Assembly: GCA_045403275.1 (NCBI GenBank)
Contig: JAXIOX010000297.1
Location: 1-28,884, forward strand
Reading direction: 5' to 3'
Origin: Burkholderiales bacterium
GTDB lineage: Bacteria; Pseudomonadota; Gammaproteobacteria; Burkholderiales; JACQAP01
DNA length: 28,884 nucleotides
Shown here: positions 3,704 through 27,249 of the stretch, piece after piece
How positions within the stretch are numbered: the first letter of the stretch is position 1
How the letters are laid out: every line of letters begins with the position of its first letter
Position numbers and translations under genes: made by a program
The notes under the pieces: generated by a model
Databases searched by the model: none
What the model was told of the DNA's origin: nothing
The model's input: the letters and a program-made list of their open reading frames with translations, nothing else

Positions 3704-4440
3704 GCGGCGCGCCCTCCGCAAACCGCGCTGAGATAGAGCGCGACGGTTTGCTTCATGCCGAATTCGAGCGCGTCTGCAATCAAGGCGTGGCCGATCGAAA
3801 CCTCCAGAACGCCGGGAACGGTGCGCAGAAACAGCGGCAGATTGTCGCGGTTCAGGTCATGGCCCGCATTCACTCCCAGCCCCGTGCGCTGCGCGGCTCT
3901 TGCCGCCGCGACATAACGCGCCAGAACCGGCGCCTGTTCGGCATTGCCAAACGCACGCGCGTAGGGCTCCGTGTACAGTTCGACGCGATCGGCGCCGGTC
4001 GCGCGTGCCGCCGCCATGGCGTGGTCCGCCGCATCCATGAACAGGCTGACGCGCACGCCCAGCGTCTTCAATTCGGCGATCACCGGTTGCAGGCGGGCGC
4101 CGTCACGCTCAAGGTCCCAGCCGTGGTCCGAAGTCGACGCGCCCGGGTCGTCGGGAACCAGCGTGCACTGGTCCGGACGTACGGCGCGCACCAGTTCCAG
4201 CATCGGCTGGAACGGATTACCCTCGATGTTGAACTCCACACCGCGCGCGCGCGCCAGCTTGTGAAGTGAATGGACATCGTCAGAGCGGATATGGCGGGCG
4301 TCCGGGCGCGGATGAACCGTGATGCCGTGCGCCCCGGCGTCTATGGCGAGTTCGGCCGCGTGCACGATATTGGGAATGTCGAGAGGGCGCGAATTGCGCA
4401 GCAGCGCGACCTTGTTCACGTTGACGCTGAGTCTGGTCAT
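3700..4440 (-). CDS. pdxJ: Pyridoxine 5'-phosphate synthase
   Basis: GITVHPRPDARHI, NIEGNP, CTLVPD, RVSLFMD, VELYTEPY, GLGVNAGHDLN, EVSIGHALI; conserved recO-pdxJ-acpS order. Confidence 0.96.
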   Translation of the reverse strand: MTRLSVNVNKVALLRNSRPLDIPNIVHAAELAIDAGAHGITVHPRPDARHIRSDDVHSLHKLARARGVEFNIEGNPFQPMLELVRAVRPDQCTLVPDDPGASTSDHGWDLERDGARLQPVIAELKTLGVRVSLFMDAADHAMAAARATGADRVELYTEPYARAFGNAEQAPVLARYVAAARAAQRTGLGVNAGHDLNRDNLPLFLRTVPGVLEVSIGHALIADALEFGMKQTVALYLSAVCGGRAA

Positions 4441-5171
4441 ATCTGCTGGAGTTCACGCAACAGTTGCCGTGTGTGCAATTCCTTATTGTCGAGGTAATGG
4501 TTCATCAGAAAGCGCATCAGGACCTTGCTCTGCGCGAGCGTGCCGGGATCGGTGAAATTGTCGCATGCCAGATCGAGCAGCGTCCTGCCCGTCACTTCCA
4601 CCTGCGCCTCGGCGCGTCCGTTCAACACTACCGGGCCGCGCTCGATCACATAGGTGTAGCGCTTCTGCGGCTCGACGGGATTGCCGGTATCGGCTTCCCG
4701 GTCGAGGCTAAGCGCGTAGCCCAGTTCCTTGAGCAGGTTCTTCTCGAATCGGCGCAGCGTTGCCGCCGGCTCGAGCCGCTGCGCGAGCGCGACGATCGCT
4801 TCGTGATAAACCGTGAACAGCGCGTCGTGGGGATCGTCGCGGGCCAGGAACTTGAGCAGCAGTTCGTTCAGATAGAAGCCGCACATCAGCCCCACGCCCC
4901 TCATTTGCGGGATGACGCCCTGCCATTCGGCTTTGTGCAGCGTGCGCAGCTCGGATCTCCCGGCCCAGGACAGCAACAGCGGCTGGAACGCCATCAACAG
5001 ACCGCGCAGTGCCGACTTGGGACGGCGGGCGCCGCGGGCCACAAGGCTGACGCGTCCGGCATTGCGGGTGAACACCTCCACGACCAGGCTGGTTTCCCGA
5101 AACGGAAAGGTGTGCAGCACAAAGGCCGGCTGTGCATCCTGCCTTTGCCTGTCGCCGCTCACAGTCGTCAT
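4437..5171 (-). CDS. recO: DNA repair protein RecO
   Basis: AFVLHTFPFRETSLVVEVFT...LVARGARRPKS, CGFYLNELL; position after era. Confidence 0.96.
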   Translation of the reverse strand: MTTVSGDRQRQDAQPAFVLHTFPFRETSLVVEVFTRNAGRVSLVARGARRPKSALRGLLMAFQPLLLSWAGRSELRTLHKAEWQGVIPQMRGVGLMCGFYLNELLLKFLARDDPHDALFTVYHEAIVALAQRLEPAATLRRFEKNLLKELGYALSLDREADTGNPVEPQKRYTYVIERGPVVLNGRAEAQVEVTGRTLLDLACDNFTDPGTLAQSKVLMRFLMNHYLDNKELHTRQLLRELQQI

Positions 5172-5175
5172 ATAT

Positions 5176-6066
5176 CTACTCGTATCCCAGGTTTTTCAGC
5201 GCCTTGAGGCTCTCGGCCCAGCCGCTCTTCACCCTCACCCAGACTTCGAGAAAAACCTTGCCGTCGAACAGCTTCTCCATGTCCACCCGCGCCTGGGTGG
5301 CAATGTCCTTCAGCTTCGCGCCGCCTTTGCCGATGACGATCGCCTTTTGGTTCGGTTTGTCCACCACGATGGCCGCGTGAATACGGCGCAGGCCCGCCTC
5401 GATTTCGAACTTTTCCACCACCACGGTCGCCGCGTACGGCAGTTCCTCGCCAAGCAGCCTGAACAGTTTTTCGCGCAGCAGTTCGGCGGCGAGAAACCGT
5501 TCCGTTCGGTCGGTGACCTCGTCTTCGCTGTACAGCGCCGGGCCTTCCGGCAGGTAGGCCTTGACGGCATCCAGCAGCCTGGCGACCTGCGTGCCCTTGG
5601 CCGCGCTGACCGGCACCACCTCCGCAAAATCGAACGCCGTGCTCACCCGGCTGATGAAGGGAAGCAAACGGCTCTTGTCCCTGGCGCGATCGATCTTGTT
5701 GATCACAAGCACGACCGGAATCCGCTGCGGCAGCAGCGCCAGCACCTTGCGGTCGTCCGCGCCGAACACGCCCGCGTCGACCACGAACAGCACCACATCC
5801 ACGCCCTGCAGGCTGTCGGTTACGACCCGGTTCATCAGCTTATTGAGCGCGCCGCCGTGGACGGTCTGAAAACCCGGCGTGTCGACAAGCACCAATTGCG
5901 CGTCGGGTTCGCTGACGATTCCGGTGATGCGGTGGCGTGTGGTCTGCGGACGCCGCGATGTGATGCTCACCTTCATGCCGACCAGGCGATTGAGCAGCGT
6001 GGATTTGCCGACGTTCGGACGTCCGACGATGGCCACGTAGCCGCTGCGATGGACCGACGCGTTCAT
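5176..6066 (-). CDS. era: GTPase Era
   Basis: [12 protein letters not shown] (P-loop), QTTR, DTPG, NKID, KH domain [22 protein letters not shown]. Confidence 0.98.
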
Positions 6067-24747: not shown

Positions 24748-25181
24748 CGCTTCCCGTAGATTTGCTGCGCGCGTCTGACGAAGGCTTCTACGAAAGTGTT
24801 GGCGATGTAATGAAACACCGGCCCGACCAGTTTCTCCAGCAGCCTGCTGGAGAATTCGTAGCGGAGTCGGAACTCGATCTTGCAGGCTTGCTCGCCCAGC
24901 GGTTTGAAATGCCAGCTGCCATCGAGATGGCGGAACGGCCCGTCCACCAGTTTCATTTCGATCAATTGTGGCGGTCGTGACCGGTTCTCCGTGGAAAAGC
25001 GTTGCCTGATGCCGCGATAATCGATTCTGATCGCAGCGTGGGTGACATCGCCTTCTCGCTTAATCACTTCGGAGCCGCCGCACCAGGGAAGGAATTCAGG
25101 GTACCTGGCGACGTCCTCCACCAGCGCATGCATCTGCGACGCGGAATACTCGACCAGCACGGACTTTTCCACCAGCACCAT
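24744..25181 (-). CDS. ratA: RatA/PasT (SRPBCC/Coq10-like)
   Basis: [43 protein letters not shown]; divergent from smpB. Start ATG 25181. Confidence 0.93.
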
Positions 25182-25214
25182 TGAGATTAACGCAGAGTTT
25201 GCGCAAGAGAGGGC

Positions 25215-25223
25215 TGGTAAAAT
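25215..25223 (+). promoter_or_regulatory. Putative extended -10 for smpB
   Basis: TG-G-TAAAAT, 50 nt upstream of the smpB ATG. Confidence 0.5.
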
Positions 25224-25273
25224 ACACGACCACCGCAGAAAAAGCACACGCATCTCGAAAGCCCGGCCTGGAA

Positions 25274-25720
25274 ATGAGCATCGTTCAGAACAAGAAGGCC
25301 TTTCATGATTATTTCATCGAAGAGCGGCTCGAGGCCGGATTGGCGCTCGAGGGCTGGGAGGTGAAGGCAATCCGCGCCGGCGGCGTACAGCTCAAAGAGG
25401 CCTACGTGGTGGTCAAAAACGCCGAGATGGTTCTGATCGGCTGCCACATCAGCCCGCTTTCAGCGGCTTCCACGCATGTTCAAGCCGACCCTACCCGCAC
25501 CCGCAAACTGCTTATGCACGCGGAAGAGATCCGCAAACTGATCGGCAAAGTGGAACGCGCCGGCTATACGCTGGTGCCGCTCGATCTGCATTACACCCGT
25601 GGCCGGGTCAAACTGGAAATCGGGCTCGCCAAGGGAAAAAAGCAGCATGACAAGCGCGACGCCGAAAAGGAGAAAGACTGGAAAAGAGAACAGCAACGTC
25701 TAATGAGACACAAAGCGTAG
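25274..25720 (+). CDS. smpB: SsrA-binding protein SmpB
   Basis: [54 protein letters not shown]. Start ATG 25274. Confidence 0.98.
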
Positions 25721-25737
25721 TTATCCCCGCTTGCGGC

Positions 25738-25786
25738 GCAGGCTAACTTGCCTCGGGCAAGTTAAGCGCGTAGCGCGGCCGGAACC
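25738..25786 (+). repeat. Conserved linker 1 with TAAC-hairpin-GTTA
   Basis: GCAGGCTAACTTGC-CTCGG-GCAAGTTAAG-CGCGTAGCG-CGGCCGGAACC; homologous to 25875-25925. Confidence 0.85.
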
Positions 25787-25857
25787 ACAAACGAGAGGCC
25801 GAAAAGGAAAAGGACTGGAAGCGTGAGCAGCAGAGGTTACTGCGTCAAAGGACCTGA
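25787..25857 (+). pseudogene. smpB: Silent smpB 3'-end copy 2 ([22 protein letters not shown])
   Basis: 71 nt from ACAA to TGA, colinear with 25650-25720; no in-frame start (TAG at 25771-25773 just upstream). Confidence 0.9.
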
Positions 25858-25874
25858 ACCGTCGAGTTTGCAGT

Positions 25875-25925
25875 GCAGGCTAACCTGCTCTTGAGCAGGT
25901 TAAGGGCGCCAGCCCGGCCGGAACT
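25875..25925 (+). repeat. Conserved linker 2 with TAAC-hairpin-GTTA
   Basis: GCAGGCTAACCTGC-TCTTGA-GCAGGTTAAG-GGCGCCAGCC-CGGCCGGAACT. Confidence 0.85.
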
Positions 25926-25996
25926 ACAAGCGCGACGCCGAAAAGGAGAAAGACTGGAAACGCGAACTGCAACGACTTATGAGGCAAAAGGCGTGA
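25926..25996 (+). pseudogene. smpB: Silent smpB 3'-end copy 3 ([22 protein letters not shown])
   Basis: 71 nt from ACAA to TGA; first 35 nt identical to 25650-25684; in-frame TAA at 25901-25903 upstream. Confidence 0.9.
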
Positions 25997-26002
25997 ATCG
26001 CC

Positions 26003-26051
26003 CCTCTAGCCTCTCGCCTCTCGCCTCCCGCCTCACGCCTTCCCCCTCACG
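26003..26051. repeat. Seven tandem heptamers (CCTCWCG-like) running into the trpS stop
   Basis: cctctag cctctcg cctctcg cctcccg cctcacg ccttccc cctcacg. Confidence 0.85.
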
Positions 26052-27249
26052 AATAATCCAAACCCATCGCCTCGCGCACGTCGCGAATGGTCTCATTGGC
26101 AAGCTTGCGGGCGCGATCGCAACCATCGGCGATGATATTGCGTACCAGCGTTGGATCGTCGAGATATGCCTTGGCACGCTCGCGTAACGGCTCCTGTTCC
26201 TTGAGCACTGCTTCGATCACCGGCTGCTTGCACTCCAGGCAACCGATACCGGCACTACGGCAGCCTTTCTGCACCCAGTCCCTGGTGGCTTGGTCGGAGT
26301 ACACCTTGTGGAACTCCCAAACCGGGCATTTGTCCGGATCGCCCGGATCCGACCGGCGCACGCGCGCCGGGTCGGTGGGCATGGTGCGGATCTTCCTGGC
26401 GACGCTTTCGGCAGGCTCGCGCAGCGTGATAGTGTTGTTGTAGGACTTTGACATTTTCTGCCCGTCCAGCCCCGGCATCTTCGAGGCTTCGGTGAGCAGT
26501 GCCTGCGGCTCGGACAGAATCATCTTACCGCCGCCCTCGAGAAATCCGAACAAGCGTTCACGATCGCCCATCGACAGATTGGCAGCCCCCTCCAGCAGCG
26601 CCTTGGCAGCCGCCAGCGCTTCTTCGTCTCCCTGCTCCTGGTAGCGGCTACGCAGTTCCCGATAGAGTTTGCCGCGCTTGACCCCGAGCTTCTTGATCGC
26701 GGCTTCGGCTTTCTGCTCGAATCCGGTCTCGCGGCCGTAGACGTGATTGAAGCGGCGCGCGATCTCGCGGGTGAATTCGATGTGCGGAACCTGGTCTTCG
26801 CCAACTGGCACGCGATTGGCACGGTAGATGAGGATATCTGCACTCTGCAGCAGCGGATAGCCAAGGAAACCGTATGTGGCAAGGTCCTTGTCGGCGAGTT
26901 TCTCCTGCTGGTCCCTATAAGAGGGGACGCGCTCGAGCCAGCCAAGCGGCGTGATCATCGACAGCAGCAGATGCAGCTCCGCGTGCTCCGGCACCCGCGA
27001 CTGGATGAACAGCGTCGCTTGCGACGGGTCGACCCCGGCGGCAAGCCAGTCGATCAGCATGTCCCAGATGTTTTGCTCGATAACTTCCGGTGTGGCGTAA
27101 TGGGTGGTGAGCGCGTGCCAGTCGGCGACGAAGAACAGGCACTGGAATTCGTGCTGCAATCTCACCCAGTTCTTCAGCACGCCGTGGTAATGACCGAGAT
27201 GCAGGCTCCCGGTCGGTCGCATTCCTGAAACCACGCGATCGACAAACAT
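26047..27249 (-). CDS. trpS: Tryptophan--tRNA ligase
   Basis: SGMRPTGSLHLGHY (HIGH), YPLLQSADIL, VPVGEDQVPHIE, KMSKS. Confidence 0.97.
   Translation of the reverse strand: MFVDRVVSGMRPTGSLHLGHYHGVLKNWVRLQHEFQCLFFVADWHALTTHYATPEVIEQNIWDMLIDWLAAGVDPSQATLFIQSRVPEHAELHLLLSMITPLGWLERVPSYRDQQEKLADKDLATYGFLGYPLLQSADILIYRANRVPVGEDQVPHIEFTREIARRFNHVYGRETGFEQKAEAAIKKLGVKRGKLYRELRSRYQEQGDEEALAAAKALLEGAANLSMGDRERLFGFLEGGGKMILSEPQALLTEASKMPGLDGQKMSKSYNNTITLREPAESVARKIRTMPTDPARVRRSDPGDPDKCPVWEFHKVYSDQATRDWVQKGCRSAGIGCLECKQPVIEAVLKEQEPLRERAKAYLDDPTLVRNIIADGCDRARKLANETIRDVREAMGLDYS

Follow-up and report, generated by a model that had tools for sequence, protein, structure and literature searches.

Two probable copies of a small guide-bearing mobile cassette in front of the original smpB end, and the family of such cassettes at gene ends in Burkholderiales

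We analyzed a 28,884-nucleotide (nt) stretch of DNA (hereafter, the window; contig JAXIOX010000297.1 of GenBank assembly GCA_045403275.1) from a Burkholderiales bacterium, in which smpB, encoding a trans-translation factor, is followed by two further copies of its own 3' end. The window's own genome, termed G000, is a metagenome-assembled genome (MAG) of 308 contigs with 78% completeness. It is likely that two copies of a small, non-autonomous mobile cassette have stacked up ahead of the original gene end. Confidence is high for the anatomy and mobility of the cassette family, which recurs at many other genes, whereas the single-strand, circle and transferase mechanism set out below is our best guess, with chances slightly short of even. 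Each unit carries a replacement end of the gene (cargo), a short guide complementary to the first bases of that cargo, and a conserved folded core. Insertion takes place between the gene body and the matching A-N... start of the resident end, without target-site duplication or loss of bases; the unit ends in ...GGARCY, followed by A. From then on, the gene is expressed with the incoming cargo as its end, and the old end, now silent, lies further downstream. Each inserted unit thereby recreates a perfect target, so that arrays grow at their gene-proximal side.

Gene-end units at the smpB locus

The features of the array are as follows (positions in the window).

25277–25720, + strand: smpB coding sequence, 147 amino acids (Pfam SmpB, 5.6e-59; list of open reading frames, ORFs)
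25650–25720, + strand: tail 1, the expressed final 71 nt of smpB, part of unit 1
25650–25786, + strand: unit 1, 137 nt (tail 1, 7 nt, guide and core 1), the newest, gene-proximal cassette; exactly the stretch skipped in the contigs of sequencing runs X2–X4
25728–25733, + strand: guide of unit 1, CGCTTG, pairing with CAAGCG at 25651–25656, the start of tail 1 (sequence reading and guide-helix scan)
25734–25786, + strand: core 1 (covariance model R1, 75.8 bits, E 1.8e-20; consensus structure; junction after 25786)
25787–25925, + strand: unit 2, 139 nt (silent tail 2, guide and core 2; R1, 79.6 bits); the orthologous unit adjoins the smpB body in the congener G012
25787–25857, + strand: silent tail 2, within unit 2
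25866–25870, + strand: guide of unit 2, GTTTG, pairing with CAAAC at 25788–25792
25871–25925, + strand: core 2, within unit 2
25926–25996, + strand: tail 3, silent and displaced, probably the ancestral smpB end, followed by native flank; the distal copy in every multi-tail locus, adjoining the flank towards trpS and kept in the two-tail strain

A repeat search recovered in-register, indel-free copies at 25650–25734, 25787–25871 (64% identity) and 25926–26010 (82%), spaced by 137 and 139 nt, in agreement with an earlier sequence-only reading of this DNA, which had described three indel-free 71-nt tails with these periods. The tail translations and codon tallies of that reading were also correct on recount, the stop codon adding one synonymous codon to each comparison. 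Tails 1 and 2 have 6 identical, 12 synonymous (stop counted) and 5 non-synonymous codons, and tails 1 and 3 are identical over the first 35 nt and then differ by 6 synonymous (stop counted) and 2 non-synonymous codons; the substitutions are few and conservative. Nei-Gojobori counts bore out the synonymous bias that had been claimed, with 13 synonymous and 8 non-synonymous changes on 11.8 and 54.2 sites between tails 1 and 2 (binomial p = 9e-6 vs neutral), and 5 and 3 changes between tails 1 and 3 (p = 0.006 vs neutral). Neither tail 2 nor tail 3 has a start codon, and an in-frame stop precedes them by 6 and 9 codons, respectively, so they are silent, as had been stated. No promoter-like or terminator-like sites were detected at 25100–26200.

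To compare strains, Logan contigs and unitigs of four public runs (X1, and X2–X4 from another study) were placed on positions 25300–26300. The X2–X4 contigs, with 0–3 mismatches, join 25649 directly to 25787, and lack exactly the 137 nt of unit 1, the edges of which share only 4 nt (ACAA). Read depth over the tail-1-specific stretch 25674–25707 was 0 in X2–X4 and 7 in X1, and X1 unitigs spanned both tail1–linker1–tail2 (25650–25816) and tail2–linker2–tail3 (25787–25955) with zero mismatches. Because X1 is probably the source sample of the window, this agreement is independent as to the assembler but not as to the sample. Strains that are almost identical thus differ precisely in whether they have this one unit, and also in the end of smpB that they express, tail 1 in G000 and tail 2 in the X2–X4 strains. 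The sequence-only reading had argued from the shared linker against a merger of strains, a view that the bridging of each tail–core–tail junction supports, and had suggested a search for junctions between the smpB body and tail 2, which are those present in X2–X4.

The number of units also varies among relatives, where that reading had proposed to look for such variation. Comparison of 20 smpB loci of the genus revealed one to four tails, most loci having one tail and no core. Two tails with one core were present in G002, G012 and G019, three tails in G000, and four tails with three cores in G015 (locus L023), where the A-B-A-B pattern indicates duplication of a two-unit block. In G012, an orthologue of G000 unit 2 adjoins the smpB body and is followed by a tail3-like end, with no unit 1; thus, G000 differs from it by one extra proximal unit. 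G002 contains a unit1-like cassette, related to unit 1 and with an 8-nt guide (CGCGCTTG), followed by a distal tail that is a hybrid of tails 2 and 3, which indicates that recombination between tails does happen. The G012 arrangement favors a gain of unit 1 in G000 over its loss elsewhere, and the unit1-like cassette and hybrid tail of G002 allow an older origin followed by precise loss; either way, the event is site-specific. Sequential insertion of ~138-nt non-autonomous units at an ACAA boundary, with downstream displacement of the old tail, had been put forward from the sequence, and the variation in unit number, the G012 locus and the X2–X4 contigs all support it. The accompanying proposal that copy 3 is ancestral is backed by its position next to the native flank towards trpS and its retention in the two-tail strain. 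Parsing the unit instead as a core with the tail that follows it was rejected for smpB, since the two-tail strain joins the body to tail 2 and the two halves of each core covary.

The cargo has a horizontal origin. Tail 1 shares 92% identity with the distal tail of G012 but only 86% with tail 3 of its own locus, and tail 2 matches native single tails of G022 (92%), G020 (90%) and G001 (89%). As tails 1 and 2 are closer to the tails of other species, they are foreign cargo and not local duplicates, and these matches together with the synonymous bias indicate that every tail had evolved in some lineage as its functional gene end before it was carried in. At the smpB locus of G022 (L021), the single tail2-type end is followed by 17 nt similar to the guide and the start of P2 (the first core hairpin, see below) of unit 2, with an internal deletion; judging from this resemblance, the stretch may be a decayed core, and the native-looking tail there may itself be cassette-borne.

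The surroundings of the array are housekeeping genes. A ratA-like gene and rnfH, the usual partners of smpB, lie on the opposite strand, and two features follow tail 3.

26003–26040, no strand: heptamer array CCTCTCG x5.4 between tail 3 and the trpS stop (Tandem Repeats Finder), an unrelated abundant repeat outside the cassette
26047–27249, – strand: trpS, the convergent neighbor (Pfam tRNA-synt_1b, 1.9e-60)

C-rich heptamer arrays of this kind, (CCTCTCG/CCTCACG)n, occur at ~60 other places in G000 and are very abundant in congeners too. At 26003–26040 the X2–X4 contigs differ by 7 nt, consistent with one repeat unit more or less.

Anatomy, fold and guide of the cassette

The linker between the tails was first traced by searching G000 with positions 25640–26046, followed by pattern and covariance-model searches, and the anatomy of the unit was derived from an alignment of 14 copies with RNAalifold. 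A unit of 75–150 nt consists of cargo (the terminal segment of the gene), a few bases of foreign flank, the guide, and a conserved core of ~60 nt. The cargo begins with A, usually as ACAA, AAAA or AAAG, and the guide is the reverse complement of its first 5–24 nt. From there the order is guide, C, RGY, GNA, GGC, hairpin P2 (TAAC..stem..GTTA), AG, variable hairpin P3, C, GCC, GGA and RCY, and then A; in core 1 this reads CGGCGCA, GGC, P2 (TAAC..GTTA), AG, P3, CGGCC, GGA and ACC. The core forms a three-way junction of a GGC/GCC helix, P2 with its invariant TAAC/GTTA base, and the variable P3, closed by a covarying 3-bp RGY/RCY helix on which the guide helix stacks. The guide finds its partner either in the bases after the junction or in the first bases of the upstream gene segment.

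We examined covariation in alignment A3, which comprises 131 distinct copies spanning many genera and was fitted to model R1. Standard pairs occupied 91.3% of cells, compared with 73.7% after shuffling (a level reached in 0 of 500 shuffles) and 29–38% when the partners were slid; compensatory changes were found in 551 cells, and the covariation score was 0.432 vs 0.146. The 5' and 3' halves of each core covary. The closing helix occurs as GGC/GCC (32 copies), AGT/ACT (15), GGT/ACC (6) and GTC/GAC (3), and its 23 G.T wobbles against 5 C.A mismatches show that the folding strand is the cassette-sense strand, on which cargo, guide and core follow one another. The hairpins of the core frequently carry C-GNA-G triloops, such as GCGAAGC; triloops of this type are typical of stable DNA mini-hairpins, a hint that the folded molecule is DNA rather than RNA.

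Analysis of the junctions and guides revealed a similarly regular pattern. The base after the core is A in 95 of 96 cores (AAAA in 35, ACAA in 29 and AAAG in 12), and the first base of the unit, usually preceded by G, is A in 52 of the 59 units with a clear guide helix. A guide-to-cargo helix score of at least 9 was obtained for 39 of 96 cores, compared with 5 of 90 control positions. At the 5' end (head) of nuoD, the guides follow the local codons: they read ...GATGAATTT, ...GCTCAATTT or ...ATGAACTT, one reaches 21 nt, and in six organisms other than G000 pairing is exemplified by TTGAGC with GCTCAA. Within G000, each nuoD unit has a guide that fits its own head (unit 1 with head 1, unit 2 with head 2).

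Target genes, tRNA loci and distribution

In G000 contig C14, the linker separates three copies of the first 33 nt (11 codons) of nuoD, with the gene on the opposite strand. All three heads encode MAEIRNYTMNF, with 8 nt changed in the middle copy and 1 nt in the distal one, and the same codon of nuoD is occupied in the six further organisms. Duplicated tails with a core were found in G000 at mraY, the pterin-4a-carbinolamine dehydratase gene, a pstB-like ABC ATPase gene, proB (PUA domain), a sigma-70 gene and acs, and at a ribonucleotide-reductase-like gene (nrdA) that was named by eye only. Other genomes contain tail arrays at folE2 (x5), accB (x5), recA (x3), gapA (x3) and glmS (x3), and members of two families have folE2 occupied at one and the same site. 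At these five tails and at the head of nuoD, there are arrays with three to five near-identical units. More than 10 different genes are targeted in G000 alone and more than 20 within single genomes for one core family, and the orientation relative to the gene body is always the same. The earlier framing of the array as a system particular to smpB or ssrA must therefore be given up: the linker is a genome- and order-wide element at many genes, at heads as well as tails.

Several of these loci have features of their own. The repeated acs tail (G000 C187:1400-1900, L172) is accompanied by a variant core without P3, GGCTAAT-stem-GTTAT-GCCGGAGCT, from which it follows that P3 is dispensable and that sub-families exist. 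The 3' end of glmS, which is the classical attachment region of Tn7, carries three cassette units and the native end at L169 (G022:C2:33000-34200). In MAG MFD06435.bin.2.8, a tyrosine-recombinase gene is present in two copies (L084, ~4220-5240; L094, ~4790-5740), each split exactly at a core; this gene may be another target, or may be a lead to a linked enzyme.

In G000, cores without left-hand cargo sit in the anticodon loops of broken copies of tRNA-Phe and tRNA-Ser(GGA). At C177:3330-3700 (L011, tRNA-Phe(GAA)) and C187:1080-1340 (L012, tRNA-Ser(GGA)), an orphan 5' half is followed by three cores or one, respectively, a remnant of the 3' half, a spacer, and an intact tRNA. The tRNA-Ser/tRNA-Phe layout of G000 recurs in four further organisms. 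Across six organisms, the order is native upstream sequence with a tRNA 5' half, core(s), 7–24 nt of the 3' half, a 14–32-nt spacer, a second 5' half with a 4–9-nt leader, and the native 3' half. G002 and G012, which lack the element there, have an intact tRNA-Ser after sequence homologous to the left-hand upstream region of G000; thus, the inserted DNA consists of a core plus right-hand cargo that restores the 5' half. To judge from this layout, the intact tRNA downstream of the cores must be expressed by read-through and RNase P processing.

Searches with model R1 detected 30–35 copies in G000, the element in 37 of 37 genomes of the genus (1–41 copies each), and in the order as a whole in 63 of the 151 genomes searched (G000 included), from 38 of 96 genera. 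None of 149 sampled genomes from other orders of the class carried it. Carriers include Thiobacillus, Methylophilaceae, Rhodocyclaceae, Sulfuritalea, Dechloromonas, Gallionellaceae and Sideroxydans, and among isolates Azonexus caeni KACC 11481, Novimethylophilus kurashikiensis La2-4, Pigmentiphaga daeguensis JCM 14330 and Paraburkholderia lacunae S27. Complete genomes contain 40–58 copies; G061 has 40, including a five-unit near-identical array, and G118 also has 40. A blastn search of plasmids and phages gave no match to the element, and a pattern scan of 2.9 million viral contigs gave three matches, of which the one inspected was a chance match in a microvirus capsid gene.

Mechanism, alternative explanations and known systems

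We tentatively suggest, at somewhat less than even odds, that the cassette belongs to a new class of DNA mobile element: a ~60-nt three-way-junction scaffold with a reprogrammable 5–24-nt guide helix would steer a single-stranded cassette into sites 5' of "A + guide complement", cleanly and in one orientation, the strand transfer being done by an enzyme of Betaproteobacteria, either a host transferase or a new one, so that replacement gene ends are moved between species. The unit would move as a folded single strand, probably as a circle in which the 3' end of the core is joined to the first A of the cargo, and a trans-acting strand transferase would cut 5' of the guide-paired A. The circle would be opened 5' of the A at the start of the guide helix, with the cargo lying either inside the loop of that helix (smpB type) or between the 3' end of the core and the helix (tRNA type). 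Cargo and guide may have arisen together when a core just downstream of a gene was mobilized from an upstream site pairing with its guide. For SmpB the consequence is passive, in that strains express different, conservatively substituted tails, and a dedicated SmpB function is unlikely.

In the polarity of its pairing, the cassette resembles tyrosine recombinases acting on folded substrates (IntI on attC, XerCD on CTX phage), in which the bases tested for homology lie 3' of the cut. The paired bases of the cassette likewise lie 3' of the cut on the folding strand, unlike those of IS608, whose guide reads bases 5' of the cut.

We looked for the enzyme among the known families. The Y1 HUH transposase (Y1_Tnp) showed no association with the element, being present in 42 of 63 carriers and 51 of 88 non-carriers and absent from G061. 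Reverse transcriptase (RVT_1) was not found in the complete genomes G061 and G118. Among five high-copy genomes, the Y2 HUH transposase was not found in four (G061 among them), the IS110 DEDD transposase in three (G061, G170 and G044), and the relaxases PF03432 and TrwC in any of the five. The G061 chromosome encodes only two full-length tyrosine recombinases, which we take to be XerC and XerD. The dif site of G000 is the canonical 28-mer on contig C27, and the junction GGCCGGARCY/AMAR is unlike it. A tyrosine recombinase ORF lay within 8 kb of only 3 of 80 element loci, without enrichment; one of these is a Xer-like gene, and a single interrupted integrase gene of one MAG accounts for the other two. 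Clusters of recurrent neighboring ORFs at the 80 loci included target genes, nuoD for example; the majority of the top clusters were unassigned, and no candidate enzyme was recognized among them. No invertase or dedicated recombinase was found near the smpB array; the sequence-only reading had likewise noted no recombinase encoded in the window. A search for autonomous copies with a distant guide partner found nothing convincing within 6 kb upstream of 37 weak-guide cores. The replication-strand bias was weak, with ~30 of 52 sites in the complete genome G092 on the lagging-strand-template orientation, no more than gene-strand bias gives. The transferase may be a host function limited to the order.

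Several observations weigh against a guide-directed mobile cassette of this kind. No circle or excision intermediate was seen, the families searched in the high-copy genomes yielded no enzyme, and near-identical arrays could grow by unequal crossing-over instead of transposition. At the tRNA loci the local guide poorly matches the anticodon-loop targets and the core has the replacement part, a new 5' half, on its right, a layout that the circle model accommodates but did not predict. The folding energies of the two smpB units are unexceptional (z -0.6 to -0.9), with z -6.1 for a tRNA-borne copy without left-hand cargo, and the model gives no account of the origin of long guides (up to 21–24 nt).

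Among the alternatives, the core might be a structured repeat useful to the host, such as a repetitive extragenic palindrome (REP)-like mRNA stabilizer or a protein-binding site, with the gene ends produced only by tandem duplication, unequal crossing-over and gene conversion. The many arrays of near-identical units are as unequal exchange predicts, the hybrid tail of G002 documents recombination between tails, and no transposase was found; we nevertheless regard this explanation as improbable, since middle and proximal copies carry foreign, synonymously diverged cargo matching the native tails of other species, and the core is found at dozens of unrelated genes, each with a gene-matched guide. 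The 4 nt shared at the edges of the 137-nt presence/absence are, moreover, far below the needs of RecA, and the element is antisense to transcription at nuoD, so that a role in the 3' untranslated region cannot be general. It is very unlikely that the units are relics of an integrase-driven phage or integrative and conjugative element (ICE) that brought replacement ends and has since lost its cargo, leaving the core as a remnant of an arm-type attachment (att) site. Synonymously differing replacement ends with displaced old ends are a hallmark of such elements, but the units measure 75–150 nt everywhere and have precise ends, only 3 of the 80 loci have a tyrosine recombinase ORF within 8 kb, the element is essentially absent from the viral contigs, plasmids and phages searched, and a single core family occupies more than 20 target genes within single genomes, against one att site per integrase. 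Equally little credence can be given to an RNA-level element, in which a small RNA of ribozyme or intron type would reverse-splice into guide-matched sites and then be copied into DNA again (retrohoming). The internal guide that pairs with the target, the strongly covarying fold, and insertion into tRNA anticodon loops, the home of bacterial group I introns, would suit it. However, G061 and G118 maintain 40 copies each without RVT_1, and an Rfam 15 scan of 25000–26400 at E up to 10 returned only three chance matches to microRNAs or long non-coding RNAs and no matching family; the folding strand is antisense to operon transcription at gene heads, the genes are rescued by duplicated ends and not by splicing, and the triloops are of the type characteristic of DNA.

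A programmed repertoire of SmpB tails, in which silent cassettes are switched in to vary the trans-translation factor, had been offered as an alternative by the sequence-only reading. Strains do express different tails (tail 1 in G000, tail 2 in X2–X4), but the small number and conservative nature of the substitutions, the identical architecture at unrelated genes, including nuoD heads with identical peptides, and the lack of a nearby invertase or dedicated recombinase leave this proposal with hardly any probability. Lowest of all we place an assembly artefact merging the smpB ends of co-occurring strains. G000 is a fragmented MAG and a two-tail strain exists in other samples; against this, unitigs bridge every tail–core–tail junction without mismatch, complete and isolate genomes have the same architecture, and the two halves of each core covary. 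Mutagenesis of the kind produced by diversity-generating retroelements was also rejected, as the tail differences do not show adenine specificity of the required direction, and no reverse transcriptase was found in G061 or G118.

Comparison of the guide-directed cassette with known systems showed that its working is closest to that of an integron cassette, with the use of a guide in common with IS608, while the defining features of neither were found. The integron attC site is a folded single-strand recombination site with AAC/GTT triplets, in which the start of the cassette pairs with the 5' arm of its own site once circular. The present units may similarly combine a folded single-stranded site with a start paired to it (the pairing and the 23 G.T vs 5 C.A were observed directly; single-strandedness itself is inferred). 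They are promoterless and arranged in arrays with the newest nearest the entry point, and have a TAAC/GTTA base in P2 that recalls the attC triplets. Unlike integrons, the arrays lie at many gene ends, beside housekeeping neighbors in the case of smpB, without an IntI, attI and Pc platform. Their boundary, RCY/A, lies beside the guide helix and 20–35 nt beyond GTTAAG, whereas that of attC is G/TTRRRY; their fold is a ~60-nt three-way junction and not an R/L-box hairpin; the crossover partner is set by a variable, covarying guide and not by a fixed, protein-read core; and the cargo is a gene fragment homologous to the target.

In IS608, cleavage and target sites are reportedly chosen by pairing with a short internal guide, and the specificity can be reset. 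IS200/IS605 elements (including IS608) and the palindrome-associated and REP elements resemble the cassette in their hairpins, which form on a single strand as those of the cassette may do, and in their lack of target duplication, internal guide and short non-autonomous derivatives. The cassette differs in its guide of 5–24 nt, compared with 4 nt in IS608, which pairs 3' of the cut; in its target, A plus the variable guide complement instead of a fixed tetra- or pentanucleotide; in a conserved structure on only the 3' side of the unit, where those elements have similar hairpins at both ends; in its gene-end cargo; in its lack of association with Y1 HUH transposase; and perhaps in its replication-strand bias, which is weak in G092 where IS200/IS605 elements strongly favor the lagging-strand template. 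Integrative elements that replace gene ends, such as phage 21 and e14 at icd, the accretion of ICESt1 and cis-mobilizable elements at fda, and islands at tRNA and tmRNA genes, share the synonymously diverged new gene end, the displaced old end, and repetition of ends through tandem accretion; those elements are kilobases long with a cognate integrase and one att site, whereas the cassette measures 75–150 nt and has many targets.

Miniature inverted-repeat transposable elements and REP/REPIN sequences are likewise short, structured, non-coding, multi-copy and non-autonomous, but the cassette lacks terminal inverted repeats and target-site duplication, is directed to gene ends by its guide, and captures target sequence that moves horizontally. 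Group I and II introns also use an internal guide that pairs with the target and reside in conserved genes, including tRNA anticodon loops; the cassette is ten-fold smaller and unspliced, matches no ribozyme family, and is present in complete high-copy genomes in which no reverse transcriptase was found. A bridge-RNA system of the IS110/IS1111 type differs in requiring a transposase, DEDD_Tnp_IS110, that was not found in G061, G170 or G044. Integrative mobile elements exploiting Xer (IMEX) differ in that the cassette junction is unlike dif and its targets are gene ends; the Xer-like genes are still the sole full-length tyrosine recombinases on the G061 chromosome. No description of the family was found in the full-text literature, including searches with literal motif strings, most subscription journals lying outside the coverage, and an older description under another name may exist.

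If the guide-directed cassette is real, it would represent a new way for DNA to move, in less than 150 bases and with the target written in a short internal guide, and essential genes would tolerate its insertion without harm thanks to the spare gene end it carries. The silent gene-end copies beside smpB, nuoD, recA, glmS, gapA and tRNA genes would be explained, as would MAG assembly breaks at these loci. An enzyme acting on a small folded scaffold with a programmable guide would be relevant to guide-directed recombinases, such as those of the IS110 bridge RNA and IS608. The termini of core genes would be exchanged between species, and strain differences in the C-terminal tail of SmpB would be a passive by-product of this traffic and not a matter of design.

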